DNA of 63,752 nt, the filler included, from Hausera hauseri (taxonomy: Eukaryota): the NCBI GenBank assembly GCA_046269625.1. It is 11 parts of 11 records of this genome, joined end to end, with 100 filler letters (N's around TTAATTAATTAA, not from the genome) between each part and the next. Parts side by side here need not be neighbours in the genome. Positions count along the whole stretch, not along the records: positions 39,255 to 44,305 come from JBJURY010350823.1; 10 more parts are not named here. One strand, 5' to 3'. Numbering within the stretch: the first letter of the stretch is position 1; each line of letters opens with the position of its first letter. A model generated the notes under the pieces. That model searched no databases and was not told where the DNA came from. It saw only the letters and a program-made list of their open reading frames with translations. The position numbers and the translations under genes were made by a program. Below are positions 13,369-59,268 of the stretch, piece by piece.

Positions 13369-14772
13369 TTAAAACCTTGGCGGCGATCTAGCCTCGAATG
13401 TATTAAAGACGTTGATACCTCTAATTCTTTCAATGGTGCTCCTTCGTATGCTCGCCTCCGACTCCACCCAAATTTTCAATTCTTCAACTGTCCGATTTAA
13501 CCTCTTTTCGGAGGCATATCGCTCCCATAACAGTACTATGGACTCTGGGAGCTTCTCTACAAGGCTTTGGTATAAGAACCCTCCGCCTAATTTTTCCTTC
13601 CTTTTCAAATTTTGCAATCGTACTGTTATGCCATCCAACAATGCAATGAATCGGTCTAGGCCTACAATGTCTTCTTGCCTTATTGGTTTAAAACGTATTA
13701 CCTCAGTCATAAAGGCGGCATAACACCGTTGCTCTCCTCCGTAGTAGGAGTGAAGCTTTCCCATCGCGGCTTTATAACCTTCTTCTGATAAATCAAAGTT
13801 CTCAATCAGCCTTTTCGGTTCTCCATATAGGCATCTTTCTAACTGCAGCTGTTTGCATATGGTAGACATTGACGTTTTGTTTACACACGTATCGCATGTT
13901 CTTTTCCATCGATCATATTCAACGACTGCTCCACCAAATTGTGGCAGTTCCAACCTTTGTAACTTTGGCAGATTTAATTTTTCTTTCATTTCGCTGTCTA
14001 TTGCCTTTTTTGTAGAGTTGGCGACCAATTTATTATCCCGTAGACTGCGTTCATAAATTATCGTGTTGATTGTTTCATTTTGTTGATCTAACTTTTCTAT
14101 CTCATTTTCCAGTAATGCTATATTCTCTTTCTTTTTCAGTTTTTTAGCTGAGGTAGTCAAAAAACACAACTTCTCTTGGACATTTGCGAAAACCCTTTCG
14201 TAACTTTCATAAAATACTTCGTAATCGTGTTCATTCAAATTTACATCCATTAATCTCCTTCTAATCGAAGCTAGTTCATTTATAGGCCTTCGCCGTTCTG
14301 CAATGCATTCTTTAAGTGCCTCTGCAGTCAACTCGCTACCTCCTTTCAGTCGGAACATCACTTGAATTGTTGAACCACGTTTTAAATTTTCCACTTCTTC
14401 GTTGGTCCGTAACGGCTTCCCGCAGTGTAACATCATGAACTCATTTTTGATCTTCAATTTTTCCTTTATAAGTTCGATCCGATTGAGATGTGACAGGGTG
14501 TCACTTACATCAGCTATGAAGTATCGGTCATCGTAGTGTATAATTATCTGTTTTTCCATTTTTTCGACTTGCACAGCTGGAATTTTGTATGTCTTCTCTC
14601 CCTTTATCCTTCCTATTTCGTACTGCTCTAATTTGACCTTTTTCTTCTGATTCCTTGACTCTCCTTTTCCTTTATTTTCTTCTAGCGACTGTCCTTTCAC
14701 ATCCTCCGAGTATGTCCGATCTCTTTTTTTCCCACTTTCTGATTTCTGTTTCCCAATACAAATTCTTTTCAA
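13369..14772 (-). CDS. gag: BEL/Pao Gag ORF: basic linker, ubiquitin-like domain (about 14338-14560), coiled coil, DUF1759-like capsid domain
   Basis: 467-aa open frame containing SDTL...HCGKPL...NLKRGSTIQVMFRLKGG, followed by BEL Gag motifs. Confidence 0.88.
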   Translation of the reverse strand: MKRICIGKQKSESGKKRDRTYSEDVKGQSLEENKGKGESRNQKKKVKLEQYEIGRIKGEKTYKIPAVQVEKMEKQIIIHYDDRYFIADVSDTLSHLNRIELIKEKLKIKNEFMMLHCGKPLRTNEEVENLKRGSTIQVMFRLKGGSELTAEALKECIAERRRPINELASIRRRLMDVNLNEHDYEVFYESYERVFANVQEKLCFLTTSAKKLKKKENIALLENEIEKLDQQNETINTIIYERSLRDNKLVANSTKKAIDSEMKEKLNLPKLQRLELPQFGGAVVEYDRWKRTCDTCVNKTSMSTICKQLQLERCLYGEPKRLIENFDLSEEGYKAAMGKLHSYYGGEQRCYAAFMTEVIRFKPIRQEDIVGLDRFIALLDGITVRLQNLKRKEKLGGGFLYQSLVEKLPESIVLLWERYASEKRLNRTVEELKIWVESEASIRRSTIERIRGINVFNTFEARSPPRF

Positions 14773-15839
14773 TACTTTTATTTCCTTCCTTTAAATTTAT
14801 ATTTTTACGTCTGTTGCTTTCTATGTCACAACTAGACGCTTTTTTCTCTTCAATGTTACCATAATTACCGATCAAGTCTTTAAATTCCTCCAAAGGCGTC
14901 ATCGGTACTTTGCCTTCAAAGTTGTACAATTTGTACTTTCCATTCTCTATTACAACTTTTACAGGCTTGGTACGGACTCCCGCCTCAAACACACTGTGAT
15001 GAAGGAAAAGATGGCCGAAATCAAGAAGAAGGACATACAGACCTTCGAAGACAATCGCATTACGCGGTTTGTGTCTACGGATCACGTTGCAGAGCACCAA
15101 CCGCACTCTGCTACCATAAAATGGAAATTTTAAATGTGTCTGGTATAACGAATTATGCATATTTTTTCTTAAATGGATAACTAGTTTGCATCTACCATTA
15201 CCCCTTAGCACACTTCTCATTATCTCCTTTCTGAGTCCATATGAAATTTCTCCTTGGACATATTTCCCTTCAATCTCGTTTAAATTATTCTTGATCATGA
15301 AGACTTTAGATTTCATAACTATTTCATATCGTGTTTCTTCCCTTATTATTAATTCAAACCCCTTTTTGTTGGTCCCATTACCACACGGAAGATTCATGCG
15401 CCTTTTATATACAGAATTTATGATGTTGTTATGTTTACTTTGAGTTATTGATTTCCATCTTTACAACGTCTAACTCGAGTATCACCCCCGATTCCCAAAT
15501 CCTTATATCTAATATATCCCCATATGAAAAAACATTGAGGTTAAATTTTCAATTATACTCGGCCTTTGTTCTCGCGGTGCCTTTCCGCGGGGGAGTACCT
15601 CCACCTTTGAGTATTAATATCCATACAATCACTCTGATTTTGTCATACAATCCGGTACCACAGCCCCGGCTGACCTCCGGCAAACCAAAAGAACGTAAAC
15701 AAAAACAAATACTATTATTAAAATTATTTCTAACCCTTTCAAGTTTTAATATACAGCGAAAATACTTCTCCCCTTCAATGTCCTCCTCGTCAGCACAGCA
15801 ATTGGTTATTATTCTATATGCGACTACGTTTGAGTCATC

Positions 15840-26130: not shown

Positions 26131-28652
26131 AATTCATCCTCAATTTGCTTCTTACTGTGCTTGACTGGTAAAGGTGCTCTATCACCTCGTAGAAATCTCG
26201 TTAGAAATTTTCTTTCGGCTTCACTTCCTATGAATAAAGGTTGGTAATCCTCATTGGATCCAATTACAAGTGTTTCACTCTCATTAAAGTTGTGCCTTAT
26301 GTTTACTAAGTCCACATATAGTATTTTCTCTATTAATTGTGGTATGGATAACAGTCTTAACTCATTCATAATTATCAACTTATGTATTTGACTCTTCATA
26401 CAGGTTGAATGTATACCACATCTATAATTCCAGGCCTTAGTTAATTCGTGCATAGGATTATACCATGGCAGAGTTAATCCGGATACGTTCATTATTTCAT
26501 CAAATATTCTTAGTCCGGAACTATAAATTCTCCTTTCGTTTTCATATCGTTCTTTAAAGGATTTACCTTCAATTAATGCTTCCTTAGCTAGCTGACATCG
26601 AAAGCTAGTAAATAGCAATAGATTATCTTTCATAGGATGAATATTGGGGTTATATTTTGATTTTTTTTGATATTGTTTAAAATATTTCTTATACATGTCA
26701 AGGTAAAATGATATGAGTTCTTTTCTTAAATGATCTGACGAACTCCATAAATAATTTGCATACTGAATACTTTGATGAATGTCCCAGTTGTTTCTTTGAC
26801 GGGATGTTATCTCATTTTGATACATTTCTGGCATACTTTCTCCGTTCATTTTAAGTCGTTTAATACGTTCTTTCCATTCCAACTGCATTATATGCGTTTG
26901 TCTAAGGTCATTAATCATTATTCTTTTGTCTGGGGCTTGATCAAGTGTAGTTACAGGGATTCTATTATTCAAAGGTAAGTGAGCTACTCGATTAGCGACG
27001 GTATATAATTCGTATTCCTCCGTTGATAATTCGTGTCGTTTTCTACGAAGCTTATTTATATGACGAAATATTGGAACGACTTCGTTAACAGTCAAATATG
27101 GGTGATCTGTTATTGATTCTACCCCTTGGGCGATTAATGCTATGATTATTTGTGTCTCTTCCGAGAGTACGTCAAAAGGAGAATAAATTTCCTCTTTTAT
27201 ATAGTTGATTATGTCTTCATTTTGAGTTATTAATTGTAAATAGTGTTGATTAAGTTTCGGATCTTTAGCATAAATAGCCAGGTTTAACTGAACTGAGGTA
27301 TTCAGATTTAACCATCCTTCATCTTGTTCAAATCCTCTAACGAAGACTTGTTGTTCTCCTTTATCTTCTTGTATTCTTTTACGTTCGTAACTCTCTATTT
27401 GCCGAGATAACGGTAGGTGTGGATCTATGGTAGAGCTTTGAGATTTGTTTACTTCTAATTGTTTAATACAGTAATTATCTACGTGATCAGTGTTTTCATG
27501 CTCAAGTGACAAGGATTTATTAATCGCTATCTCCTTTAATTGTGCTGTGGTTCGACGTTTTATTAATTTTGGTTTGATAGTTGGGACTTCTTCTATTACT
27601 GTATGTCCTTCGATCGGAGTAATGTCCTCATCACCACTTGATTGTTTGGTTGTTTTCATATGGAACATTAGATTAATAAAGATTAACAATACCAACCAAG
27701 TCAACGAACTTTCTGGTATATCTTTCGGTATCATTGGAGCGGCTTCTGCTGTTCCAAATAATATAAATGGAATAACGAGTAATATTAATATCGGGTAAGT
27801 TAATCCGATACCAATTGTATTGAACTGGTTACTGTTAACTGATATCTGTTCATTTATTTCTTTTTCTTCATTAGTATTCGAAATGCTTTCCTCAGTAGGT
27901 TCAAATTTATTCATGTCGGTGTTAATACTACTGGTTATCTGATTGTTAGGGTTATTACTTCTAACTGCTGCCCAGAAGGCATCGTTCTCTTCCTTGAAGC
28001 GTTCATCCGTGTATTCCTCCATTTTGGATAACTTTTTATTATAGTGTAACCCTAAGATTCGCTCGTCAAAAGCATTTGATCCTCGGAGACTCCTTGTCAT
28101 AACTGCTGCTGTTTCTTTATTATTACCTATCCTTTGTCTGCAAGTGTTTATTATTCTTTTTCTTTCTTCTTTAAATGGTCTAGCTATTTCGTCATTATCA
28201 GGTAGTTCAAAAAATATTATATGATACCGTATTGCATTTAACTTACCCGAAAATCCACTTGCGTTTACTGTATCAAATTTATCTATATCCATATAATCCT
28301 CCGGGGTTAAAATGGTGTTCACATTTCGTTCTAAGTAATCGTTCCATACTATCCGTGCTTCGTCTTCCTCAAAAAGTTTTATATCTTTTCGAATAAGATC
28401 ATCCTTTATGGCCATGAGTATCTAAGTCATCCAACATTTAATCGCATAAGCTTCAGACTGAGAATTAGCATTCAACTCTTCACCATAATGTTTAAACAAG
28501 TCCAGACATTGATTAGCTACCTTTGATATTCTTTTAGAAGTTCTACTTGCTATTAATTTCGTGGATAGTCTTTGAAGATAGTTAGTTACATTAGTTATAG
28601 CAAATGAGTCAGTCATATCAGTTACATTGAATGACGGTGGTCTTTTTTGCAA
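26131..28652 (-). CDS. Giant modular polyprotein, part 3 (76-aa and about 760-aa frames separated by one stop; runs off the contig edge)
   Basis: KCWMT*ILMAIKDDL...WNDYLER...GKLNAIRY is the third copy of the repeat domain. It also has a third signal/TM unit and a fourth PLFIGS motif. Confidence 0.82.
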
Positions 28653-30070
28653 AGTTGAGTGATTAGCATACGTTCTCTTCGACTTCCGATGAATAAGGGT
28701 TGATATTTATTTCTGTCTCCATATACTATACTTTCTTCATATGTTAGGTTATGCTTTTCTATTAGAAAATCGAATGATCGTAAGCAACGAGTTATTTGTA
28801 GTATTGAATGGGTTTCTAATCGGTCCTTTATTAACAATTCGTGTTTTGGATACATAGGTTCATTACCTAATATTCCCATCGTTTCGTTCCATGTTCCTAT
28901 CATAATTTTAACTGGTTGTAACCATATAGGTTGTAATTGTATTTCCCTTATAACTCGTTGTAGTAAACGAAATCCTTGGTAATACATCCTAGTTTGAAAA
29001 TCTACCCATGGGTTGAATTGCACATCGTCTATCGGAATCTTGTATGAGTTGTATAGAAGACTGGATATTAAAAGTAGTTGATAATCATAGGTTGATTTCC
29101 CAAGGTCTATTCCTGTTTCATGTCTTAATCGATTAAAATATGACTCATATAAGATCATGTACAGTTTCATGAAATTTTCTTTATCCTCGTAAGGTAGTTG
29201 ATCTATGCTACCTTGTAATAACAGACAGTTAACAATATCTCTACTCCGTTCTCTAGGTGTTTCCCCATATATGCGAAGTTTTGTATCAGGATAATCAGGA
29301 TTGAGTAGAGCGGCATATTCGGTTTTTGGTTCAATATCATCTAACCATTGTTCGTTTCTGTCGGCTATAATGCGTAGATTCTTTATAGTATTTGGAATAT
29401 TTTCCTCTTCTGAACATATTCTTGTTGAACTTACTGGAAAGTGTGGTGGTTGATATACTAATCTATATAGCACTTGGTTCATTTCTTCCCTCAGTGATGG
29501 AAGATTCGCTGGGTTTACTCTTAAACTATTTACTAATCTAAAATAGGGAATTATTTCATTAGCCATTGTATAATTATGTATTCCTTTAGGGTATAGCGTC
29601 TTCGCTATGATAGTTAGAATCGTCTTCGTCTCGTGTGTCGTTTCCTTGGGTGCCAAATTAATATCTTCTCGTATTGCTTTTATTAGCTCCGGTGCTATAC
29701 GTTTATTAGTTTTATATGGTTCCCATTCACACCCATTTTTATTTAATTCTTCCATAACTTCCTTTAGTGATTTTGGTAACTTTCTCCATTCTTCAGTGTC
29801 AACATAGTTTTTTCGTAATATTCCTTTAGGACAACTATATCTCCCTTTCTTCGAAGGAGGTTTATATGTAGAATTAATATCTTCCCAATCCTCTCTTTGA
29901 CCTGGATATGGTAATCTTTTTTCTAAGTGAAAAGAGCATTCGTGAAGTTTATTCTTTTTTCTATATTCTGTCATTATGTGTATTAGACTAGAATAGCCAT
30001 CGCCAAACTGTGTTTGTTCTTCGTGCTGTTCCTCCGGTAATCGTTGATCTAGAGAAAGGTTTAGTTGCAT
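28622..30070 (-). CDS. Giant modular polyprotein, part 2 (482 aa), probably joined to part 1 before a stop and frameshift
   Basis: Same strand and composition as part 1. It ends with YQPLFIGSRRERML, homologous to the motifs in part 1. Confidence 0.8.
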   Translation of the reverse strand: MQLNLSLDQRLPEEQHEEQTQFGDGYSSLIHIMTEYRKKNKLHECSFHLEKRLPYPGQREDWEDINSTYKPPSKKGRYSCPKGILRKNYVDTEEWRKLPKSLKEVMEELNKNGCEWEPYKTNKRIAPELIKAIREDINLAPKETTHETKTILTIIAKTLYPKGIHNYTMANEIIPYFRLVNSLRVNPANLPSLREEMNQVLYRLVYQPPHFPVSSTRICSEEENIPNTIKNLRIIADRNEQWLDDIEPKTEYAALLNPDYPDTKLRIYGETPRERSRDIVNCLLLQGSIDQLPYEDKENFMKLYMILYESYFNRLRHETGIDLGKSTYDYQLLLISSLLYNSYKIPIDDVQFNPWVDFQTRMYYQGFRLLQRVIREIQLQPIWLQPVKIMIGTWNETMGILGNEPMYPKHELLIKDRLETHSILQITRCLRSFDFLIEKHNLTYEESIVYGDRNKYQPLFIGSRRERMLITQLCKKDHRHSM

Positions 30071-30194
30071 TTCTACCGATGGTAATTTTGAAGGTACTTC
30101 CTGAGTATGGTCTTCTTTGTTCCTATCGACTTTATCTTTCGTTTCTTTGTCTTTTGCCCAAAAATTTATTGTCTGTTATTATGCGGAATGTTTT

Positions 30195-33100
30195 CTATGA
30201 CAACTCATCTTCCTGTATTTCTTGGTTACAAATATATTCTTCACGCTCCCTTTCAAAAGGTTCGGCTAATGCTTGATCGTCATTCAACATGCAAAACAAC
30301 ATCCTATATCGTAAGGCATTTAGATTGCCTGTCAATCCTTTTTCATTTATTCGTTCCAGCCGATTGATTTCAATACTATCTTCCTCTGTTAAGGGTGTAT
30401 CTTCATTTCTAAGTAGGTAACCATTCCATAATATTCGAGCTTCTTCTTTTTCCATTTCCTCTACCTTTTCTTTCGTTAATTCGTCTTTTATTGTCATTAA
30501 TACGTAAGTCAACCAACAATTAACCACGAATAGATCGGATGTTGTCTTATTTACCAATTCTGCTCCGAAATTTTTATACAGGCCAATACATTTCTTCCCT
30601 ATTTTCCTAGCTTTCTCTTGATTTATAAATTTTTCACACATTGGGGATGTTTGCCGTAGTAGCATAAACATGTCTATATTAGGTAGTTGTAGTTTTTTCT
30701 CATTTGTAGTATTAATGAAAAGAATTCGGTCTTGTGCACTACCAATAAACAGAGGTTCATACTTTCTTATATACTTATAATCGGAATGATTCGATGTAGA
30801 TGGAGTTTCTTTATACAATTCAAAATTATTATTATAGATTCGGTTTGTTTGTGGTCCACTATTTATCCTTAAAATTCTCACTAATTTGTCATAGTTCGTA
30901 CAATTTTTGAATGTTTGATGACCATAGGGAAATCGGAAAGAGGATTCCATTGCACTTACCTTAGGTTCGTCAATTATGAGAATTGTTTTATCCATATCAT
31001 CAGGTATTTCAAATCCTTGTTTACCACGGCGTCTATCCCGATTGAAATTTGGGGCGCACACTATCCTTTGTCCCCCAAAACATTTATCCCAATCGAATTT
31101 TAGAGCGCTAACGATCCTTAAGAATTCCATACTAGTCAAAATACACAATCCCTTGCTAGGTATTGGTCCGATATTTATGGGTTTTTTAGACTCCCCTTGT
31201 TCGGGTATCTTTACAAAATTATCCATCTCGATATTATTGTTTGGTTCCATTAAGTCATCATTTCCTTCAACTTCGCTATTGTCGCATAATGAGTCCTCAT
31301 TTTTCTCCATTTTTGAAGGTTCTTCACTGAGATAAGTACATGTATTTTGCTCTTCGAAAATGTCTAATTGTTGTATCTCTTTCGTCGTATCACTCAATTT
31401 CCTTTTCTTTTTATCTCGTTTTGATTGACAATTATTTATTACATCCTCTCGTTCCTTTCTATACATTTCAACCTTCTGATGGTTATCATCTAGTAGACAG
31501 AACAGTAACCGATAACGTAATGCATTTATTCTGCCTGACGTTCCTCTAGCGTTTACTTGTTCCACTTTGTCGATTTCTTCTCTATCTTCCTTAGTTAGTG
31601 ACGTATGTATATCTCTATATAGATAAATATTCCACAAAATTCGGATTTCATCTTCTTCCATTTCTTCTATTTCCTCCCTTTTTAATTCATCCTTTATTGT
31701 CATCAATGTATAGGTCAACCAACAGTTGATTATGAATGCATTAGACGTTTTTGTATTCACCAGTTCACCTCCAAAATTTTGGAATAGTCCAATACATCTT
31801 TCTCCTATTTCTTTAGCTTTTTCTTGATTTACATACTTACTGCATAATGGAGATGTTTGTTGTAACAAAGCAAGTGTATTATTAGTAGAAATTCGTGGGA
31901 TTTCTTTTCCGAAATAATAAATAAGGAATTTTCGTTCCTGCTTACTACCAATAAACAAAGGTTCGTATCTTGATAAATGGTTTAAGCATTTCGATATGAT
32001 CCACTGCTTCTCATTATCATTAGCATCATAATCAGCCGGTTCAGGTTTACTTAATTTCCAATTAATGGTATGAATATACTGGATCAGTTCTATCGGAGTA
32101 AATGTTTGGGCAGATAGCAACCTCATTTCGCATATTTCCCTTAGATCCTTTGCTAATTTATCGTAATTTATGCAGTTGTGTATTGATTGATACTCATAAG
32201 GGAACTCTAAGGGTGATTGTCTCAAACACTCCAATTGCTCTTGTATCGATGTATTAGTAGATGTACAACTAGATATTATTTCCGTATCTTCCGAAGGGAC
32301 TTGATTTGAAAATTTATCCGTTTCCTGGTTAGCAATATGGGTTCCTTCTTGTTTTTCATCATCGAGTGTACCATTCAAGGAATTTGTGACTTTTATTGGT
32401 TTTTTGCATTTGGAGAGACGTTCATAAGATTCGTCATCATTGTTACTAAAGAATTTACTCATCATCAACAACGAAAATACCCATAACAATACTGAAGTCC
32501 ATGAAGAATTAGAGCGATGGGATACAGTCTCGACTGCCTCTGTTGCACTAATCATGGAGAGCAAACATATTCCCATAAGGAATAACGTTCCCAGGGAGAA
32601 TGTGGAGTAACTCTTGATACCTGATGATTCTCGTTTTCTATTTTTTTCTTGGAGGTCTTGAATGTGCATTGCTCTTGTTTCGTTAGCTATCTCGTCCATA
32701 TATTTAATGCTATTACCCGCAAATTGTAATCGATCTATTTTCATCCACTGTTCAGGGGGAAGATTAATATCTAGAGGCTGTCCCATTCTTCTGTTCCAAA
32801 CTCGTTTAACTTCCTCTACCCCATTAATAAGTTCTCTGCCTCCTATATTTATGTTATGATGTTTAAAAATTTTTATTGCTTGACTAGCGGCTACATAATC
32901 ATGATACTGTAATTTTCCTGGGCTAGCCAGATCAGGAATCGTATAATACACTTCTTCGCAGCTTATTTTCAGGAAAAATGTGTCCAATGCGGTTGATGCA
33001 TTAAAGTCTAATTTTAGGTCTTCGCAAACTAATTTTATTATGGGTCTATATTGTTCATCTGTTATTCCGCACTTCTCGTGGTATCTGCTAAGGAAATCTC

Positions 33101-34343
33101 TTAATTCCACTACGCTATTTATAGGTCCTTTAAGTAATTGCTGTGCGTGATTTATGCGTTCTGGAGTAGCTAACAAGAAATTCTCCAGTCTGTGTCGGTT
33201 AGCTGCCTCTCTGGTCAATGGGAGTGGTGGCAAGTTTCCCCCTTTTTGTTGAGGTAATTCGAAATAATTCTGTTCAATTGGTTTGACCTCTTTACGTTGT
33301 ATCTGTTTAGTAGGGTCTATTTTCCTTAGCTTAATATCGTTATACTCAGGGAATTTTGGACTTTCTTCTGATTGATGTTTTTCAATTTCCTCTCTTAGTC
33401 GTTTAATATTTTCTTCAGCTTCTTCCAACTTCTTACTTAAGGCGATATAACTCACGGGTGGCTGCATATTGCTTGTAGTCTGCATTTCCATTAAATCGGG
33501 ATATATTGTCGTTGTTGATATAGGTCTTGGTACGTCTTGAAACGAATTTCGCGGTAGTTTCTGTGGTATACTCACCATACTATTTATCGGACTAGTGTCC
33601 ATATCAATTACCGAAGGCAAGGGTACTTGTTTTCTTGCTTGATCATTCAAGGAAGAATTATCTATTTCCTCATCATCCACTATTATACGGCTATTAAACA
33701 TATAATAAACTAATATCGACAATAACATGATTGTACTGCTCCACGCATTTGTAGCTGTTGTCATGTGCGTTGGTTGGGCGTCCGCACATCCAAATATTAT
33801 AAGCAATATTAGCGTTAACAGGGTTATTGTCGACAACTTAAAAGGACTTCCGAAAATTGTAGATGGGGTATTAATTGTAGGTATTTCCATTACTCGTGTT
33901 TGTGTTATTTTTCGTGCTAGTGTAGACTCTGTATTCTGTTCACTTAACTGCTTTAATGTAACATAATTTAATGAGGGTGGAACAGTCTCCTCTCCTGGCG
34001 CAAACCACCATTGATCATTAGGTTGAGGCTTGGTATCCTGGTAACCTTCGCAGTTGAATACAATTGATCTTCCAATAACTTTGAGTTCTGCTCCCGTTAG
34101 TTTGTATAGTACATCTAAACCAATAATAAGATCAGAATACGACTCTTGTGGGTTGGCATAACAGGTAACATCAATATAACCTATAGTTAGATCTAATTTT
34201 CCGCATGCTTCGGGTATATAATGTGTAATTCGTCTATATAATCGCAAATTTATACGAGTCAGCGGAGTAGTGGTATCAAGTTCCGCATTAACATACTTAC
34301 CGTATACTTTAACCAATATTGGTATCAACAAAGGGTAATCATT
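30195..34343 (-). CDS. Giant modular polyprotein, part 1 (>1378 aa, open from the contig edge): degenerate retropepsin, two signal/TM units, two copies of an unknown repeat domain
   Basis: An uninterrupted 4.1-kb frame in AT-rich DNA. N-terminal VKVYGKYVNAELDTTTPLTRI...DLIIGLDVL resembles a retroviral aspartyl protease fold, with DTG changed to DTT. Confidence 0.85.
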   Translation of the reverse strand, partial: NDYPLLIPILVKVYGKYVNAELDTTTPLTRINLRLYRRITHYIPEACGKLDLTIGYIDVTCYANPQESYSDLIIGLDVLYKLTGAELKVIGRSIVFNCEGYQDTKPQPNDQWWFAPGEETVPPSLNYVTLKQLSEQNTESTLARKITQTRVMEIPTINTPSTIFGSPFKLSTITLLTLILLIIFGCADAQPTHMTTATNAWSSTIMLLSILVYYMFNSRIIVDDEEIDNSSLNDQARKQVPLPSVIDMDTSPINSMVSIPQKLPRNSFQDVPRPISTTTIYPDLMEMQTTSNMQPPVSYIALSKKLEEAEENIKRLREEIEKHQSEESPKFPEYNDIKLRKIDPTKQIQRKEVKPIEQNYFELPQQKGGNLPPLPLTREAANRHRLENFLLATPERINHAQQLLKGPINSVVELRDFLSRYHEKCGITDEQYRPIIKLVCEDLKLDFNASTALDTFFLKISCEEVYYTIPDLASPGKLQYHDYVAASQAIKIFKHHNINIGGRELINGVEEVKRVWNRRMGQPLDINLPPEQWMKIDRLQFAGNSIKYMDEIANETRAMHIQDLQEKNRKRESSGIKSYSTFSLGTLFLMGICLLSMISATEAVETVSHRSNSSWTSVLLWVFSLLMMSKFFSNNDDESYERLSKCKKPIKVTNSLNGTLDDEKQEGTHIANQETDKFSNQVPSEDTEIISSCTSTNTSIQEQLECLRQSPLEFPYEYQSIHNCINYDKLAKDLREICEMRLLSAQTFTPIELIQYIHTINWKLSKPEPADYDANDNEKQWIISKCLNHLSRYEPLFIGSKQERKFLIYYFGKEIPRISTNNTLALLQQTSPLCSKYVNQEKAKEIGERCIGLFQNFGGELVNTKTSNAFIINCWLTYTLMTIKDELKREEIEEMEEDEIRILWNIYLYRDIHTSLTKEDREEIDKVEQVNARGTSGRINALRYRLLFCLLDDNHQKVEMYRKEREDVINNCQSKRDKKKRKLSDTTKEIQQLDIFEEQNTCTYLSEEPSKMEKNEDSLCDNSEVEGNDDLMEPNNNIEMDNFVKIPEQGESKKPINIGPIPSKGLCILTSMEFLRIVSALKFDWDKCFGGQRIVCAPNFNRDRRRGKQGFEIPDDMDKTILIIDEPKVSAMESSFRFPYGHQTFKNCTNYDKLVRILRINSGPQTNRIYNNNFELYKETPSTSNHSDYKYIRKYEPLFIGSAQDRILFINTTNEKKLQLPNIDMFMLLRQTSPMCEKFINQEKARKIGKKCIGLYKNFGAELVNKTTSDLFVVNCWLTYVLMTIKDELTKEKVEEMEKEEARILWNGYLLRNEDTPLTEEDSIEINRLERINEKGLTGNLNALRYRMLFCMLNDDQALAEPFEREREEYICNQEIQEDELS

Positions 34344-38515: not shown

Positions 38516-41020
38516 ATAGGGCAGGTTTGGTGACTTCCAGAAACTACCGAGGCAACCCTGTCCGCCCCTTTCATAATTAGAGCATCATTGTTTGATATGA
38601 ATCTGTATGGCCTATGTTGGTTTTTACGTAGCTAGACTTGAGTTCCGGAATTTATTGAGACCACCCCATTCTTTTCACCTGGACATGCTGCATCTGGACA
38701 CACGCTTGCCAAGAACAGCAGTAGAACTAACGATCAGTTTCAGAAACTCATTCGAAAATATTTTATCCTGATTGTTGATGGGACATTCCCATAAATGCCC
38801 CGCATTTTCTCCGCATCTTCGCTCCAACCGCCACGGAGAGGAAACACACTTAAAGTGTGGTACCCTGATATGCATTTACTCTAAGCAGAACGTTTTGCTT
38901 TTTACAATATTACATGCTCATCGGCATTTGTAAAATGATCCTTGTACGATACTGATAGGATGCAGTGGCAACTCGTCAAAGTGAAAAAAAAAATAGTTGT
39001 TCACAAACTTTAATACTTCTACTACTCTCCCATTACAAAAACTACCACCGATAATAATAAACAATTTACATTTTTTTAATAGCATGATAGCGTTACTCAT
39101 TAAACAGCGTGGACTGTTGTAATTCTCTCGTCCTCCTGTGACAGAGTGAGATTTNNNNNNNNNNNNNNNNNNNNNNNNNNNNNNNNNNNNNNNNNNNNTT
39201 AATTAATTAANNNNNNNNNNNNNNNNNNNNNNNNNNNNNNNNNNNNNNNNNNNNCATGCGCTCGAGATTTATTAAATAAAAAAAAATAGTACAAGAAGTT
39301 GCCGATAGGTGGCGCTGTAGTTCAACAAGGCATTTTACAGATGTTCAATATGTTTGCCGTAAGTAGTCCAATACATCACGAAGCGGGGCGGTCGTGTTTT
39401 TCGCCGCTCCGCTTCAATCGTCATCATGCCCTTATTTTTGATACTACAATATTGTCTTTATATCACTGGATGCGTCTCGAAGTCATCTACATCGTGTACT
39501 ATTTCTTGTTTATGTAACTTAACAAAAAACCGTTAATTAGTTAATTAATCATTTTCAACCCATATCTTTTACATTGGAATTGTTCTAAAGCGTCATGGAA
39601 TGATAAAAAGCTTGCCAGATTCGTCTTGTAGTGAAACTTCAAAACATCGTAGCTCCACGACTATTCAAGATTTTTTCGAGCGACCAACACCAACATCTTC
39701 AGAAAAATCGCCGGAACAGGGTGACGTTGACTAATTAGCTGTGAGTTATTAATTTCCTCATAATTAAGTTTCTTTTAAACTATCACGTGACCTATACTGT
39801 TTAATCATCATAACTCTTCAAAAAATGAACTGTTTACCTTTGGATTTTTACCACATTGCCTTAACATCAAGACCTAGCCACTATTTAAATTTCGAAGGAA
39901 TATATTCATTATTTCTTTACTAATTAAGATTATTAATTTTTGCCGCCTTTTCTCTCAATCAGAATACGAAAAATTCGTCACATCTTTCGCATGCAAAGGT
40001 CTAATACAGAGTCTATGCTATATGTTAATAGCTCGCTTTTTGCACCTTTAAAGTCTAATAACTTCTGCATTTCTGCTTCAATATTATTAAGATTTACATC
40101 GTTGGATGCAGAAAATTCCTCTCTACAAGACTGTAAATTATCAAAAATCTTCTTTAATTACTCTCTGAATAATTAACATTCAAATGTTATCACGTGACCA
40201 TCAACAATCTTTAAATATCTTCTTTGGATGTCTACACTTCTATAATTTATTCAACGTACTCCTTTACAAGAATTCCAGCTATTGACCACAATTTGGTGCC
40301 ACAAATTTATTAATTACTCAAGAACTATTTATGTCAGAAGCTTATTTTTTCATCAGCACAGAAGTAAAAATCGCCTCCATCTATCTACGAATTTTCGAAC
40401 TGTTCTGATTTTTTTTAATAAAGGAGAAATTTGACAATCAAACTTATCACGTGACTTTTTAACCTCAAGAGTTCAGAACCAAAATGGAGTCTAGACATGT
40501 TAAACGTCAATCTTCTCTCAAGGTAACCGTATTGTTTGATAAACATTTCATTTATCGTCAATGTTTTCAAATATCCCTTATAATATGTTATTAACAACGA
40601 AGTAACCACTATATTGACGACCCTTTCTATGATTATGTAACCTTTTTGTACCCAGAACAGTTGTAAACAACTTCATTACATCATTACTAATCATACTATC
40701 TTTTTTACAACTGTCAAACCCTTGACTAGAAACAATCAACATTTTTGTCTCAATGGAATGACATAGCCCTCTTGCCTCTCTGAGGCCATTTTGTGTCTCT
40801 TTCGGACCTTGCTGCTAAACCTCTAAGAACTAACTTGCATTAAAGGAGTCATTAATATTATTATAATCTGTATATAAATACATTTATTCTACTTGTTTTC
40901 CCTATAATGGTACCCACCATAACTAAGTGTATCTTTCTACCTTTTATTGTATACTTGATTAATGTACCTCGCTTAACTATTTTCTTATCACCCCGCATGT
41001 TTCTCTTATACCTTACTTTT

Positions 41021-43675
41021 GGGAACGCCATTTTGTTTCCCCCTGCCTTACTTATACTTTTGGGACAGACATTTTGTTCCCTAAACCTTGAAAATCTTTT
41101 CTAAAGCCTTTGTTATTGAGCCTAGTTTCTCATTTTGGGGTAATAATTAGTTTTTTTTATGTGTTATTTACCATGTATTTATATCTAAACCTTTAATAGG
41201 GAAACGCCATTTTGTTTCCCCTTCCCTTGTTATTATGTGTTTGCCTAGTTTATCACTGTTTCTCTACTGTGTTATTATACCTTTTATTGTACATATTAAC
41301 TTTGTTACATCATTAATCTGGCTTCGCCATTTTGTTTCCCCTCCCTTGTTTATTTAATGTATGCCTGGCAGGATTTTATCTTTTCGGGAAAGACATTTTG
41401 TTTCCCACGCCTTGAAAACCTTTTCTAGAGTCATCGCTACTCTATTTTTAAGCCTTTGCTATTGAGCCTTGTTTCTCATTTTGGGGTAATATTTAGTTTT
41501 ATACGTGTTTAATTACCATGTACTTATATATAAACCTTCAATTGGGAAACGCCATTTTGTTTCCCCTTCCCTTGTTATTATTGTGTTTCTATACCTTTTA
41601 TTGTACATATTAACTCTGCTGCATCATCAATTTGGCAACGCCATTTTGTTTCCCTCCCCTGTTCATTTTATGTAGGCCTGGCAGCATTTTTCTTTTCGGG
41701 AAAGACATTTTGTTTCCCATGCTTTGAAAACCTTTTCTTGAGTCATAGCTACTCTAATTTCGGGAACGCCATTTTTGTTTCCCCCTCCCTCGATCACTAC
41801 GTGCATGCCTTGCTGCATAATTGACCTTTTTGGAGACACCGTTACTAAAAACTCTTTATAAGATTTAATTTATGTAATTATATAAACCATTGTTGTTTGT
41901 AATTATTGTTATTTTCAAGTGCTGTGTATCTTTCTAGTGTATTTTTAAAACATTTCATTGTGCATACTACTTTATTCCCCACTACCTTTACTAGGGAAAC
42001 CCTTTAATTTTGTTTTGACTTTACTTATATATCTGTACCTTGAACTTGACAATTTTAATCGGGAACATCATTTTGTTCCCACCCCCCTTTTTTCTAACTC
42101 TTTAGCCTCTTTATTCGGGAATAACACCTTGTTCCCCATTACCTTTACTAGGTAAAACCTATACTCGGGAAAATCACTTTGTCCCCTATTATCTTTATTT
42201 TGTGGATGACATTTTACAACGTATCTCTATAAGTATTTCATCTAGCAAAACCAAAACTATTTTGACAACCATTTAAATTAGTTTTTGTGAATGACATCTT
42301 ATAACGTATCTCTATAAGTATTTCATCCAGCAAAACCAAAACTATTTTGACAATCATTTAAATTCGGAAACACCATTTAGTTCCCCACCACCTTTACAAG
42401 GGTCAACCCTTTATTAGGGAATGCTATTTTTAATTTCGGGAACACCATTTAGTTCCCCACTACCTTTACAAGGGTCAACCCTTTATTCGGGATTGCTACT
42501 TTGTTCCCCACTACTTTTTTGACTTTACTTATATATCTGTACCTTAAACTTGACAATTTTAATTGGGAACACCATTTTGTTTCCCACCCCCCTTTTTTCT
42601 CACTCGTTTGCCTCTTTATTCGGGAATAACACCTTGTTCCCCATTACCTTTACTAGGAAAAACCTATACTCGGGAAATTCACTCTGTCCCCTATTTCTTT
42701 ATTTTGTGATTGACATTTTACAACGTATCTCTATAAGTATTTCATCTAGCAAAACCAAAACTATTTTGACAACCATTTAATTTAGTTTTTGTGAATGACA
42801 TCTTATAACGTATCTCTATAAGTATTTCATCCAGTAAAACCAAAACTATTTTGACAATCATTTAAATTCGGGAACACCATTTTGTTCCCCACCACCTTTA
42901 CAAGGGTCAACCCTTTATTCGGGAATGATATTTTTAAATTCGGGAACACCATTTAGTTCCCCACTACCTTTACAAGGGTTAATCATTTTTTCGGGAATGC
43001 TACTTTATTCCCCACTTCATTTTTATTTTATTTATTTATTTTTTTCTTAACTTTGCTTTGTTCACATGTTTTTAATATATTTTATTTTACATTCTAAGTT
43101 ATTGCTATACTATCTTAGCTACGGATTTGACTCCTTAACTCGGGAACGTCACTTTATTTCCCACCCCCTTTCATCAATCTTGACAACCTTTTCATTCGGG
43201 AATAACACTTTGTTCCCCACTACCTTTACCAGGGGATAACCCTTTGATCGGAAATGTTACTTTGTTCCCCTCTACATTTATTAAGACAATGTTACTAACT
43301 TATTTACAATTTTAGTCATGACATTTAATAAGCAAGTCTCATAAGCTACTTTGACCAAAACATGAATCCACTACTTGGGAATGCCATTTTGTTGCCCACT
43401 TCCTTTCCTTTATCAATGATACAAAAACTCATTTTTTAAACTCTGTCTTGATATCATGTTTTATCTTTACCCGGTTCGATTCACTCTCTCTTTGGACACG
43501 ACTCCTTAACTAGAGAATGCCATTTAATTTCCCACATACATTTATTTAGTAAACAATTTCTTGTAATTAGCAAAACCATAACTACTATGTCAACCTTTCA
43601 ATTCGGGAACACCATTTTGTTCCCCACTACCTTTACTAGGGACAACCCTATAATCGGGAATGCTACTTAGTTCCC
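41021..43675 (+). repeat. Complex array of about 30 GGGAAY-N8-RTTCCC hairpin motifs with higher-order duplications (units of about 340 bp and 504 bp)
   Basis: Copies at e.g. 41021, 41199, 41386, 41544, 41698, 41762, 42061, 42117, 42438, 42565, 42622, 42870, 42942, 42993, 43142, 43198, 43605, 43656. Segment 42010-42510 is nearly identical to 42515-43015. Confidence 0.9.
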
Positions 43676-43765
43676 TATTTCCTTTTCACATAAATTTTTA
43701 TTAATGTATGTCATCATTTGTCTAATGTATTTTATGTATCCTTTAACTGCCTTTATGGCAAAGAA

Positions 43766-44285
43766 TGTCACCTTGTTCTGCAGCACTTGTTATCATTCCT
43801 GTCGTCACCTTGTCTAATTCCAACTGTTCTGGAATTCACTGTACATTTTTGTTAATCTTTGACTCTCTTGTGATATAAATGTAACTCTTAGTTTCCAAAT
43901 AAAGGCCAGCCGGCGCCTGCACAAAATGCTCTAAGCTGAGCTTTGCTCGGCGAGTAGCAGGAGTTGGAATACAATATTTAATTCTCAACTAAGATCTTAC
44001 TGAGTCCTGCGTGACTCGATTAGCAAATGACTTGAGTCCTGCGAGACATAATTCTATCAAATGTAACCTTTCAGTTCTCCGATGAGTCCTGCGAGACTCA
44101 TTTCTGCCTTTGCTTTTATGGTCAACAACCTTCTTTGTAACTCATGTAACCTCTGTATTCTATTTGTAATTTTTGATACTAAATAAAATCCCCGGCGCCT
44201 GCACGAAATGCTCTAAGCTGAGCTCAGCTCGGCGAGTAGCAGGCGTTGGAATTCAATGACTGTAAGTAATCAGTATTTTGTGACA
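43766..44285 (+). mobile_element. Putative LTR (about 520 bp)
   Basis: TGTCAC...GTGACA inverted termini, internal TATAAA and two AATAAA, and a weak purine tract upstream. No PBS follows, consistent with a 3' LTR. Confidence 0.5.
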
Positions 44286-44405
44286 GCAAGATTTCGGTGA
44301 GATCGNNNNNNNNNNNNNNNNNNNNNNNNNNNNNNNNNNNNNNNNNNNNTTAATTAATTAANNNNNNNNNNNNNNNNNNNNNNNNNNNNNNNNNNNNNNN
44401 NNNNN

Positions 44406-55056: not shown

Positions 55057-56307
55057 AAATGTGTCAGTTGCAACAGTTTGTCGTATCCAATTAAATTTCC
55101 CACACATTGGATAGATAAGATTAAACAAGCCCTGGAGACAAGATTTACAACTGAACCAGACGGACGAACTACTTTAGACTTATCGAATTTTCATTCTGAT
55201 AAAATATTCAAAGATTGTGGTCTAGAATTAAGATTGAATCGTCAAGAAGTGATTGAGAACATAACCGAAATTCTGAAAGGAACTTTGAAAGAATTGACGG
55301 AACTCAATGTGTCCCATAATTCCATTCAACGTCCATCGACATTGAAACGATTTCTTAGCGAAATTAACGTCCTGAAATTGAATCTCAGCAATAACAAGAT
55401 TTCAGATGCAAACGGTTTGATTTTCTTATCGACAACATCAGTCCAGGAACTTAATATAGAACAAAACGAAATCATGACGAGGTACAACTCGAAAAATGGG
55501 TTACGTGATAAAATCGTATCGATCATTCCAAAATTGCAAGTATTGAACGGATCAAATCTGGAAAGCAGTGTGGTAATAGCAGCTGATAGGATTGAGTTGA
55601 ACAAAAAAATACCTCAAACAATAAGTTCGAACAGAAATGATGACGTTTTCAAATTCGTTCAGGATTTTCTAACGAAATTCGATTCAAGAAATCGAGATGC
55701 GTTTTGTTCTTCATACGGATCAGAATCCGTTTTTACGTTAAACACATGTGGTGCTGTCCCAAAATATTTCAAACCATTCACGCGAATGGCGCAATGTGTG
55801 AAGACGGGCATGGTAGAAATCAGCCGATTCTTCTCGCGATTTCCATCGACTTATCATGTATTCGATCAGATGAATGTGGATGTTGTCGGTAATGGAATGT
55901 CAGAAATGGGCAAACAATACGCCATTTGCAACATTACAGGGATTTTTATTGAATGCCCCAGTAAACTGGGACAAACCCATTATAAAGCTCGACAATTCAG
56001 CAGATTTTTGATCATCATCGAGGGTGGCTTAATTCTACAGGATAATCTTACGATCAATTTTTACAATGAGAAAAATTATCAGATTCAATACGATTCATTC
56101 GTCAAACACGTCAGCAACTTGGTCGATTTCGCCAAGACTTGTTCGGCTTTGGAAAAATTATCTTACCGGGACGCAGAAGTAGTTCTGAAATTCAGTGAAA
56201 TGAGTGGCATGAATGCAAATAATAGTATGCAGTTTTTGTCGAATTGTTCCAGTTTTGATGATGCAGTTGCCAGATTACAGAATCAACAGTGTTCTTGTTT
56301 GAAATAA
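55057..56307 (+). CDS. NXF1: Nuclear RNA export factor (NXF1/TAP family), 5'-truncated by the contig edge: LRR, NTF2-like and UBA/TAP-C domains
   Basis: TLDLSNFHSD; LRRs LTELNVSHNSI, LNLSNNKI, ELNIEQNEI; LRRcap IPKLQVLNG; NTF2-like FVQDFL..FD..NR, ITGIFIE, RQFSRFLII; TAP-C FSEMSGMN..NSMQFL. Which paralog this is cannot be determined here. Confidence 0.88.
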   Translation, partial: KCVSCNSLSYPIKFPTHWIDKIKQALETRFTTEPDGRTTLDLSNFHSDKIFKDCGLELRLNRQEVIENITEILKGTLKELTELNVSHNSIQRPSTLKRFLSEINVLKLNLSNNKISDANGLIFLSTTSVQELNIEQNEIMTRYNSKNGLRDKIVSIIPKLQVLNGSNLESSVVIAADRIELNKKIPQTISSNRNDDVFKFVQDFLTKFDSRNRDAFCSSYGSESVFTLNTCGAVPKYFKPFTRMAQCVKTGMVEISRFFSRFPSTYHVFDQMNVDVVGNGMSEMGKQYAICNITGIFIECPSKLGQTHYKARQFSRFLIIIEGGLILQDNLTINFYNEKNYQIQYDSFVKHVSNLVDFAKTCSALEKLSYRDAEVVLKFSEMSGMNANNSMQFLSNCSSFDDAVARLQNQQCSCLK

Positions 56308-57195: not shown

Positions 57196-59268
57196 TCACT
57201 TTAATGAGTAACCGGTATTTTCATATCCATATACCTTTTCAACATGATGCAAATCTCCATCCACCGAAACTGCTTTAACGGACGAATGTTTAGCAAACGA
57301 AACAAAGACCTCATCGAGACTAGTCTGGGATATTGAGTAATCCAAAATATCACCAACACTTTTCAAACTTTCGAATAGATCGAATAGCACGAATAATTTC
57401 ACTGCAGTTTCCTTCAATCGGTAAACAATCGTCACAAAATTCTCATCTTGAATGTACGCATCATTGTCGAATTCTTTGGTCATTATTTGTTTGATTTTAT
57501 CTCTGTTGAAATTACTCGACATATCCGGCGGTAGTCGAATTTTAATTTGATAATCACTACCGAATTTCGACTTGAGTCGCTGCACACTACCGATGCATTT
57601 CATTTGCCCATTGACCATGATACACAGTCGATGACACAGAACTTCACATTCCTCCATATTGTGTGATGTGAGCACAACTGAGTGTTTGTTATTGCTTGTC
57701 AGAGACTGAATTCTATTCCACAGAAATCGTCGAGCACCGGCGTCCATTCCCGCTGTTGGTTCGTCAAGAAAAATAACTTTCGGACTGCCGATTAATGAAA
57801 TAGCCGTTGATAATTTCCGTTTGTTACCACCGGAAAGATTCTTCGTAATTTTTGAACCGTGTGACATGAGATTCAGACTTTTCATGCAACTGTTAACGGT
57901 TTCTTTCAGTTTCGATTTGGGAATGCCTCGTATTCGGCAATACAGATACAGTTCTTCTTCACAAGTCAGCAAACTGTGCAGTGCGTCGAATTGTGGACAA
58001 TAGCCCATATTTTGATGGGCCTTTATCATGTCCCTAATGATGGATTTCCCATTGATAAATGACTCCCCGGATGAAATGGCTTCTTCACCGATTAGCATTT
58101 TGAATGTCGTCGTTTTCCCAGCCCCATTAACTCCCAGCAAACCAAAACATTCCCCTTTATGAACACCGAATGTTATATTATTAACGGCAAGTTTTCTACT
58201 TTCGGACGAAACCGAATCTCGAACCGATTTACAACAATTGCACAAAACTTTAATCGATGGATTATAAATTTTTGTCAATTTTACAACTTTCAACGAAAAA
58301 TTTTCACTCGGTTCAGACAACACAAACGCTCGTTCTGCACAAACATCAACGTCTTCATCAATTATCTGTTCCGTTTTCTTCAGTTTCAAATTGCGAATTC
58401 TTCCGAGAATTGTCACTTGAACTAGACCACTTTCTATGAGAAACAAAACCAAAGTCCAACCAACGAACAGAACACATAACGAACAAATTTTTTCCCCGGC
58501 ATTATCCCAAGACAAAGCATCGTACTGATAGAAACCCCCTGTGATATTGTACGTCAGATAGTTGTACGACATTTCGACTATTCCTCGACCGAGATCATAC
58601 TGGGGGAAAAGGAGAAAGAATTTCTGGAGACCGGAGTTTATTGGCATCAGTGTTATGTCTTCCTTTTCCAGTAAATCCATAATAAAAGTCGAAATGGTAG
58701 TAATACAACCAATCAAAACATTATAGCTGTAGAGGACGACAAAAGCGGTACTGGGAACTTTGAAGAAAAACGTAAAGAAGTACATATTCGGGAGAATAGC
58801 AAGACCGTATAGAAATAGAATCAAAACAAAAGCAACAACATTTTTCTGACTGATGTACGACTGGTAATTAAATGAGTAGAAAATGATGATAATTATCGCA
58901 ACAGGGATAGCGTATTTCACAAAATCCCACAGAAATGTCGATATCCAATAAATGTACGAATTTATACCGGAAACCATTTGCTGGCGTTTTGACCCGGTGA
59001 CATTTTCTTCAACAAGAAACAACACAAAACTAGCCGGAATCAAGGACAATGCAAAGATGAGAAAGATGGACAGGGAGAGTTCGAGTGACATTTGGCTATT
59101 GATCTGCTGCAGCAGATCTTCTTGAGAATATCGAAACGGATAATTCGACACGACTATTCCGTATTTCGATCGTTCTGATGATGGATTTATTCTCGATCTG
59201 AGCAGCATGTTATCGAATATATTTGCATAGGCCGGCATTGATACGTACCCCTTTGAGTTGACCCAGAT
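57196..59268 (-). CDS. ABC transporter subfamily A, C-terminal half (TMD2 and NBD2), 5'-truncated by the contig edge
   Basis: IWVNSKGY; PASFVLFLVEE..TGSK.QQMVSG; GECFGLLGVNGAGKTTTFKML (Walker A); GYCPQFDAL; LSGGNKRKLSTA; FLDEPTAGMD; LTSHNMEECEVLC; YSISQTSLDEVF. Confidence 0.96.
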   Translation of the reverse strand: MWVNSKGYVSMPAYANIFDNMLLRSRINPSSERSKYGIVVSNYPFRYSQEDLLQQINSQMSLELSLSIFLIFALSLIPASFVLFLVEENVTGSKRQQMVSGINSYIYWISTFLWDFVKYAIPVAIIIIIFYSFNYQSYISQKNVVAFVLILFLYGLAILPNMYFFTFFFKVPSTAFVVLYSYNVLIGCITTISTFIMDLLEKEDITLMPINSGLQKFFLLFPQYDLGRGIVEMSYNYLTYNITGGFYQYDALSWDNAGEKICSLCVLFVGWTLVLFLIESGLVQVTILGRIRNLKLKKTEQIIDEDVDVCAERAFVLSEPSENFSLKVVKLTKIYNPSIKVLCNCCKSVRDSVSSESRKLAVNNITFGVHKGECFGLLGVNGAGKTTTFKMLIGEEAISSGESFINGKSIIRDMIKAHQNMGYCPQFDALHSLLTCEEELYLYCRIRGIPKSKLKETVNSCMKSLNLMSHGSKITKNLSGGNKRKLSTAISLIGSPKVIFLDEPTAGMDAGARRFLWNRIQSLTSNNKHSVVLTSHNMEECEVLCHRLCIMVNGQMKCIGSVQRLKSKFGSDYQIKIRLPPDMSSNFNRDKIKQIMTKEFDNDAYIQDENFVTIVYRLKETAVKLFVLFDLFESLKSVGDILDYSISQTSLDEVFVSFAKHSSVKAVSVDGDLHHVEKVYGYENTGYSLK

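Follow-up and report, generated by a model that had tools for sequence, protein, structure and literature searches.

A non-coding 4.6-kb element of Hausera hauseri with an array of small inverted repeats and the folded 3' tail of R1-like long interspersed elements

The window analysed here (63,752 nucleotides from the Hausera hauseri assembly GCA_046269625.1) is a string of unrelated contigs joined by N-TTAATTAATTAA-N spacers, and our subject lies on one of these, a contig of 5051 bp at window positions 39255-44305 (G000:C350823) from a fragmented 869-Mb assembly. This contig carries an array of short inverted repeats set within a larger element without long open reading frames (ORFs), hereafter element A, which consists of a head, the array and a tail and is followed by a piece of a second member of the same family. 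An initial annotation had described the array as hairpins in front of a putative long terminal repeat (LTR). L-numbers (L030, L031, L033 and so on) denote contig loci of the same assembly. The features of the array contig are:

39255..39360, minus strand: flank, the end of a high-copy Tc3-like (Tc1/mariner) transposon, 98% identical to the empty-site contig L090, depth about 2600.
39361..43975, plus strand: element A, a putative ORF-less retroposon of 4.6 kb with head, array and tail, covered by overlapping unitigs.
39361..40550, plus strand: non-coding head, common to element A, L031, L093, L094 and L095.
39379..39415, plus strand: predicted 14-bp hairpin near the 5' end (z -4.27, 0/200 shuffles).
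41021..41782, plus strand: left sub-array of 9 units with (C)GCCATTTT or GACATTTT loops and a block period of about 320-350 nt.
41960..43675, plus strand: right sub-array of 20 units, with 9 secondary hairpins interleaved.
43898..43975, plus strand: AATAAA and, behind it, the double-bulged stem-loop that forms the 3' tail of element A; together they made up the first half of the former putative LTR.
43984..44257, plus strand: second family member, a 5'-truncated 3' piece of the L031/L032 type.

Single unitigs link the head to the first units of the array (39363-41228) and the last units to the tail (42950-43939). No frame of 120 amino acids is present in element A, the longest having 96, and no remnant of a long interspersed element (LINE) was detected, the best of 175 protein queries giving E=0.009 (positive control E=0). 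The element also differs from a short interspersed element (SINE), being 4.6 kb long with long T runs throughout and with no meaningful Rfam match on its contig. L031 has the same head, a tail and a different central repeat; it likewise gave no match to LINE proteins and provides another complete example of an ORF-less head-repeat-tail element; the central repeat differs in each family member. The hairpin that opens element A has a counterpart of 11 bp and different sequence at the same place in L094 (z -1.93), and L031 lacks its 5' arm. Behind element A, the piece of the second member holds three GAGTC-CTGCGN-GAC(TC) hairpins, an AATAAA (44182) and a second tail (44190-44257), and over about 120 nt it is 99% identical to L032 and 93% to L031; the 48 bases behind the second tail occur nowhere else in the assembly. 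The sequencing depth along the contig climbs from 12 to 32 in the 5' to 3' direction, which is a weak hint of extra 5'-truncated copies.

The origin of the 3' region is given by its relatives. The segment 43700-44305 matches eight other contigs, and in one of them, L033, a related end lies behind a 1021-aa frame with reverse transcriptase (RT) and RNase H. In L033 the LINE ORF and the tail are oriented as the plus strand of the array, and we therefore take the plus strand as sense. Among named database entries, the closest to the LINE protein carry the labels R1 or R1DM (31-33% identity), so that the label R1-like for the partner reflects database labels and domain content, not a tree with reference clades. 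A search with the LINE protein gave 136 matches, and the DNA 3' of the ORF was read in 27 of 30 loci. Many of these close with AATAAA, then a stem interrupted by two A-rich bulges, and finally a brief terminal repeat that is (TT)CAAT-like or of another kind. The same tail fold was found behind RT/RNase H ORFs on L033, L030, L069, L058, L060, L072, L077 and L053, with L077 representing a full-length member that has ORF1, an ORF2 for endonuclease, RT and RNase H, and long T/C-rich untranslated regions (UTRs). When 12 tails, two of them from the window, were aligned, 93.8% of the cells were paired and 15 of the 23 pairs had changed on both sides, a score reached in 0/500 shuffles; the structure was drawn from the same 12 sequences, so that the slid controls are biased in its favour. 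A model of the tail recovered 15 tails in 52 sources, 12 of these being its own training set, and when applied to 23 new loci it found 12 further tails, none of which had been used in building it. It gave 0 matches in 80 distant metagenome LINE loci, the best segments of which nearly all have 23-36% identity, and no Rfam family matched the double-bulged stem-loop. The putative LTR of the initial annotation is not confirmed: no direct repeat was found to connect the two contig ends, and what the relatives share at the 3' side is the tail of a LINE.

The double-bulged 3' stem-loop was seen in the window at 43908-43975 and 44190-44257 as well as on L025, L035, L069, L099, L102, L105, L107 and L252, and several members have an extra G+C-rich extension between AATAAA and the tail stem. 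A SINE-like element (L238:1215-1500) also closes with the family tail, and a similar one lies behind the L053 tail; the head on L238 appears tRNA-like by eye, and ARAGORN called no tRNA in it.

Element A starts at 39361, exactly where the high-copy Tc3-like repeat stops, and the 11 bp directly in front of it (39350-39360) are found 3' of three family tail junctions. Thus the tails on L030, L069 and L238 all join the Tc3-like repeat at CAAT|ATGTTTGCCGT, and element A begins directly after those same 11 bases, which are likely to be a target-site duplication. The L030 and L069 junctions were found independently, while L238 came from a search for the target. A corresponding offset is seen at another site, where the head on L094 starts behind an 11-bp stretch that also trails the CAAT ends of tails on L094 and L096. 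This pattern fits target-primed insertion with an 11-bp duplication. The Tc3-like site accounts for 3 of the 26 tail junctions seen by the model, and most lie elsewhere.

The hot spot corresponds to the last codons of the Tc3-like transposase gene (window 39344-39360; L030:53-79, L069:114-140, L238:1495-1521, L090:1095-1121). At L094:798-870 and L096:120-273 a single site has been hit repeatedly, each inserted piece being followed by the same 11 bases and one insert comprising no more than roughly 30 nt of tail. The arrangement of element A and L033, each with a truncated member behind it, raised the possibility of a telomeric HeT-A-like chain, which was rejected because most tails enter unrelated DNA.

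Since element A ends in the folded tail of R1-like LINEs it has likely been copied by their enzyme in trans, and with the shared tail and the lack of ORF1 and ORF2, both element A and L031 would qualify as non-autonomous, LINE-mobilised retroposons. We are highly confident that element A is an ORF-less passenger of a LINE. The compact and strongly covarying tail together with the 11-bp junction rule can be read as a small cis-acting element that serves an R1-like enzyme.

The head is present on 5 contigs and the array on 1. It contains three TCACGTGAC boxes (39783, 40190 and 40447) at a kept spacing and CAAAATGG at 40480. Over its first 1.2 kb the head of element A aligns end to end with that of L031 (global score 515, compared with 327±18 in 30 shuffles), and it aligns partially with L093, L094 and L095, at identities of 47-76%. 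The three boxes and an AATGG(C/A)G module are kept among the heads, and the lack of codon periodicity and the many non-triplet gaps rule out a coding origin. That the head has diverged by about 50% between lineages while its layout was kept points to selection acting over a long time on parts that are wholly non-coding. Genome-wide, the pair of box and AATGGCG module occurs 15 times as against 0 for a control pattern, with at least one occurrence in what by eye appears to be a host promoter, and two pattern searches for further heads returned mostly unrelated loci. From its motifs the head looks promoter-like. Its origin by internal deletion of the partner LINE is unproven; for L030 and L033, the closest partners, the assembly does not reach the 5' ends that bear on whether the head stems from a LINE 5' UTR.

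The array itself was defined with an iterated weight matrix, which found 29 GGGAAY-N8-RTTCCC units between 41021 and 43675 with scores of 17.9-37.4; in the rest of the window only 2 matches on the plus strand and 1 on the minus strand passed the same cut-off, all of them at or below 11.5. The roughly 30 hairpins of the initial annotation are thus borne out. By the matrix the loop measures 8 nt in 28 of the 29 units; in two left-hand units it comes to 8 or 9 nt according to the register. The start-to-start distance varies between 41 and 199 nt. With the stems in fixed register, 8 of the 29 form six Watson-Crick pairs, 6 more are complete when G.U pairs are allowed, and the remaining 15 contain one or more mismatches; the three stem variants named earlier are all present, but the full GGGAAT/ATTCCC stem occurs a single time, at 42993. 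The secondary hairpins, described before as AGGGT-CA-ACCCT, are present as AAGGG..CCCTT repeats of which nine could be aligned, and they fold with 5 bp and a 4-nt loop rather than a 2-nt loop.

The array has expanded by block duplications of 72, 85, about 330, 504 and 577 bp. The right sub-array includes the 504-bp duplication, tandem pairs of 72 and 85 bp and the older 577-bp repeat. Searches of the genome by DNA and by pattern found no other copy of the array beyond its own contig: a degenerate unit pattern gave 20 matches, 18 of them on the array contig and the other 2 solitary, compared with 9 matches for a control. Nothing on the array contig came near an Rfam gathering score (two weak snoRNA matches), five related loci gave a single weak match, and no ribozyme was called in either case. 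Paired CSL sites have a spacing of 15-17 nt, and the spacing of 10 nt here rules them out as the identity of the array.

In the older duplicated blocks the stems change more slowly than the spacers. Over three comparisons the differences amounted to 6/84 in stems, 13/56 in loops and 39/101 in spacers (p 3e-7), although the three comparisons overlap in ancestry and are not independent, and the stem-anchored alignment could inflate the gap between stems and spacers somewhat. The 577-bp block alone gave 3/36 for stems and 25/57 for spacers (p 2e-4). On a tree of the units built from non-stem columns we counted 10 changes between Watson-Crick and G.U pairs, 5 between Watson-Crick and A.C, and 10 to other mismatches. 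A U.G pair became U-A three times, yet any transition from a wobble yields a pair. Folding of 42850-43700 gave z -3.99 on the plus strand and -1.85 on the minus strand (20 shuffles each), and in local folding 14 of the 29 hairpins on the plus strand, compared with 8 of 29 on the minus strand, reached a mean pairing of at least 0.5. The sense strands of the family are G-poor and T-rich, and small hairpins will therefore stand out from an otherwise weakly folded RNA.

Hairpins of other kinds occur in the relatives. At the CTGCGN sites in UTRs found via the protein search, 13/17 form hairpins with stems of at least 3 bp, compared with 4/45 background sites and 1/15 sense sites in distant LINEs; only these background counts are used, because one CTGCGN alignment had been picked for its stems and its covariation is circular. 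GCTGCCA-type motifs on L031, L032, L099 and L252 close a TGGC-N6-GCCA-type stem at 8/15 sites, as against 0/17 in the background. As a candidate for a genuine RNA motif the CUGCGN hairpins are stronger than the array of 29 units, and element A itself contains no CTGCGN-loop hairpins.

Many family members have such CUGCGN hexaloop hairpins in their 3' UTRs, with freely varying stems and 1-5 per copy (sites at window 44002-44099, L072:1053-1279, L069:424-526 and L051:2100-2142). The different central repeat of the sister element (L031:2391-3643, L032:487-879) has GCCA(A/T/G)CC..GG(T/A)TGGC stems that by eye seem to vary in step.

The stem constraint, the better folding of the plus strand and the hairpin arrays in relatives make a multivalent RNA role our leading guess for the array, though the basis is weaker than, and different from, that of the initial annotation. 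Given that element A is a LINE passenger, an RNA-level role of the array seems slightly favoured, and on the narrower claim, that the array supplies RNA hairpin docking sites within a LINE passenger, we are evenly divided. The multivalent RNA signal of a retroelement proposed by the initial annotation survives in so far as the array is a non-coding part of a likely retroelement transcript with the plus strand as sense, but the covariation on which it was based does not.

Several observations weigh against the docking-site interpretation or against parts of it. The main-stem covariation score was 0.157, compared with 0.145±0.021 after shuffling, and was reached in 142/500 shuffles; the cells changed on both sides numbered 5 compared with 3.3±1.4 (93/500 shuffles), the RNAalifold covariation term for the main stem was 0, and for the secondary hairpins, where the register is uncertain and the pair count out of register, the covariation was reached in 72/500 shuffles. 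On the unit tree the excess of Watson-Crick/G.U over Watson-Crick/A.C changes is only 10 to 5 (one-sided p about 0.15 by hand), and both the 10 changes to other mismatches and the 15 mismatched stems point the same way. Loops of the left sub-array show no difference at all (0/40), whereas its stems change like the spacers (4/59 and 21/203, p 0.61). An (A/G)CCATNTT motif resembling the loop is found on the sense strand of several relatives, where it lacks the GGGAA arm. The array is confined to one contig, and an independent copy is thus lacking; head and tail are found together on only 2 contigs, those of element A and L031; and a head profile placed the head upstream of 0/17 ORF1-type loci, most of which have little upstream DNA. 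Finally, the 3' flank of element A is the second member followed by unique DNA and not the transposon of its 5' flank, so that a target-site duplication flanking element A is not seen and the contig may combine copies; the climb in depth likewise may mean that parts of different copies have been joined.

The array of the same LINE passenger could act as DNA instead, with YY1/Pho-like CCATNTT cores inside inverted GGGAA pairs for a dimeric factor. The wider YY1 consensus is CCATNTT. On the unit tree positions 3-7 of the loop, with its CA.TT core, show 2, 0, 3, 1 and 1 changes, as few as the stems, and the loops are thus not free to vary; the left loops are unchanged at 40/40 sites, and two units that lack the 5' arm keep CGCCATTTTG. 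On the sense strand RCCATNTT is enriched in element A (10 observed, 1.5 expected), L032 (3 and 0.5), L025 (2 and 0.2) and L093 (2 and 0.1), more weakly in L031 (3 and 0.9, p 0.08), and is absent from L099, L108, L077 and L033; these enrichments are not independent, because the members counted are partly homologous. The genome-wide occurrence of the box and AATGGCG modules of the head would also agree with a function in DNA. A DNA-level array would serve as an internal enhancer, an antisense promoter or a silencing element, comparable to mouse L1 monomers, for which PMC10620060 gives a GCCATCTT YY1 core. However, many loops of the right sub-array (AACACTTT, GCTACTTT, GTTACTTT) lack CCAT while their stems are intact, the loops of the old blocks change faster than the stems (13/56 and 6/84, p 0.01), and in relatives GCCA(TT) is often the 3' arm of a hairpin. 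We regard the DNA-level function, a YY1-like form of which the initial annotation did not name, as unlikely, and likewise the paired GGGAA factor sites that it suggested. Less probable still is a neutral hypervariable repeat, in which a chance inverted repeat was multiplied by slippage and template switching and the similarity of units reflects recent duplication. The obvious recent duplications of 504, 85 and 72 bp, the lack of significant main-stem covariation and the presence of another central repeat in each family member all agree with neutrality, as does the description of Ogre/Tat 3' UTR repeats as hypervariable in PMC7004042. It is difficult to reconcile with stems that differ five times less than the spacers within the same old blocks, and with short motif islands that are kept despite the variable spacing.

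A very improbable explanation is that the array precedes the 3' LTR of a large LTR retrotransposon as part of its 3' UTR, or that it consists of 6-8-6 recombination sites. Tandem arrays are documented in Ogre 3' UTRs (PMC7004042), and the window does hold LTR-element fragments and a long polyprotein-like contig. These fragments and frames lie on other contigs, across assembly spacers and unlinked to the array, as do the pol fragments, and the array contig has no gag-pol or other ORF. Moreover the 3' region trails non-LTR ORFs in the relatives, the junction offset is 11 bp, and no direct repeat longer than 21 nt exists between 39255-41000 and 43700-44305, which leaves little of the Ogre/Tat setting first proposed. 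The arms of tyrosine-recombinase sites are 11-13 bp long; the 6-bp arms are short for such sites, and the array contig encodes no recombinase.

If the array does provide RNA docking sites, element A could work as follows. RNA polymerase II would transcribe it from the motif-rich head, and the 3' stem-loop would be recognised by the ORF2 protein of an R1-like LINE, with the CAAT end priming at the nicked target in target-primed reverse transcription. Many copies of one protein, either the LINE ORF1 protein or a host export or localisation factor, may bind the hairpins and thereby help an RNA that does not benefit from cis-preference into the LINE particle or the right cell compartment. Slippage and template switching would have enlarged the array, and selection would have trimmed it. 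On a broader scale it is conceivable, and we put it forward as tentative and on balance doubtful, that element A belongs to an ancient group of ORF-less passengers of R1-like LINEs, 4-5 kb long and equipped with a promoter. Such a group would be the invertebrate equivalent of SVA/LAVA, its lineages would each have evolved a different array of small RNA hairpins as a multivalent handle for capturing the LINE particle, and its LINE group would home into Tc3-like transposase genes.

Other contigs of the window and the assembly gave a few further observations. Three long minus-strand frames at window 26131-34343, on a separate contig, have a retropepsin-like motif at the start and hydrophobic stretches, and no Pfam match was found for them. 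Intronless NXF1-like and ABCA-like frames (window 55057-56304 and 57196-59268) face each other on one 4.2-kb contig, and a homologue search with the NXF1-like frame gave no database relative at 1e-20. Window 2102-2965 and 13369-14790, again on other contigs, hold a Polinton-like DNA polymerase B / endonuclease VII fragment and a Bel/Pao-type DUF1759 frame. By eye, L252:1030-1400, L101 and L106 resemble vertebrate (fish-type) intron/exon DNA, one of them directly behind a family tail, and the assembly may contain mixed organisms or chimeras. L229:1-1189 is a satellite made up nearly entirely of CCAATCACGTGAC-type boxes.

The known ORF-less passengers of stringent LINEs (SINEs, short internally deleted elements (SIDEs) and bipartite RTE/Vingi elements) are described as short, and element A is multi-kb with a motif-rich head of its own. 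It thereby offers a natural test of what an RNA needs beyond its 3' tail to be copied in trans; should the array turn out to be neutral or a DNA site, the remainder would be a new repeat family of modest interest. A literature search that was mostly without subscription journals and without Repbase found no multi-kb ORF-less passenger of R1. R1-clade LINEs recognise their own 3' UTR (PMC3414825 and PMC3747384). Transposons are among the known targets of site-specific LINEs (PMC4640811), and the Tc3-like hot spot is therefore not new in kind.

The closest known systems are the bipartite ORF-less LINEs, for which Kojima (2018, PMC5786205) names no sources other than RTE, Ingi, Vingi and R2, and the R2/R1 SIDEs, which use R1 3' ends (PMC5786205 and PMC3414825). 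Like element A they have no ORF and a LINE-type 3' end, and they insert at the site of the partner with a duplication-like offset. The elements described here differ from them in being 4.3-4.6 kb and not short, in having a large central motif array and, with regard to the bipartite LINEs, in a head whose derivation from the 5' UTR of the partner is not established. The partner LINE resembles SART1 and R1Bm, which recognise their 3' UTR stringently, in its structured 3' end, its preference for a repeated target sequence and its coding capacity for endonuclease, RT and RNase H (PMC7265360 and PMC3747384), whereas its tail ends in (TT)CAAT and not poly(A), and it has its hot spot at the end of a Tc3-like transposase gene and not in ribosomal DNA or telomere repeats. 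With the Ogre/Tat 3' UTR arrays element A shares a hypervariable, lineage-specific repeat in a non-coding part of a retroelement (PMC7004042), but those are plant LTR elements with gag-pol, while element A lacks LTR and ORF alike and its units are inverted repeats set apart by spacers. In its mode of working element A probably resembles SVA/LAVA of apes, which likewise are non-coding, are mobilised by a LINE in trans and have an organised, lineage-specific central repeat domain that possibly sets mobilisation; for LAVA, the central variable number of tandem repeats sets the efficiency of mobilisation (PMC4432496). The differences are a structured LINE tail in place of poly(A), AT-rich spaced hairpin repeats and an R1-like instead of an L1 partner, and the likeness is one of mode only, with no kinship claimed.

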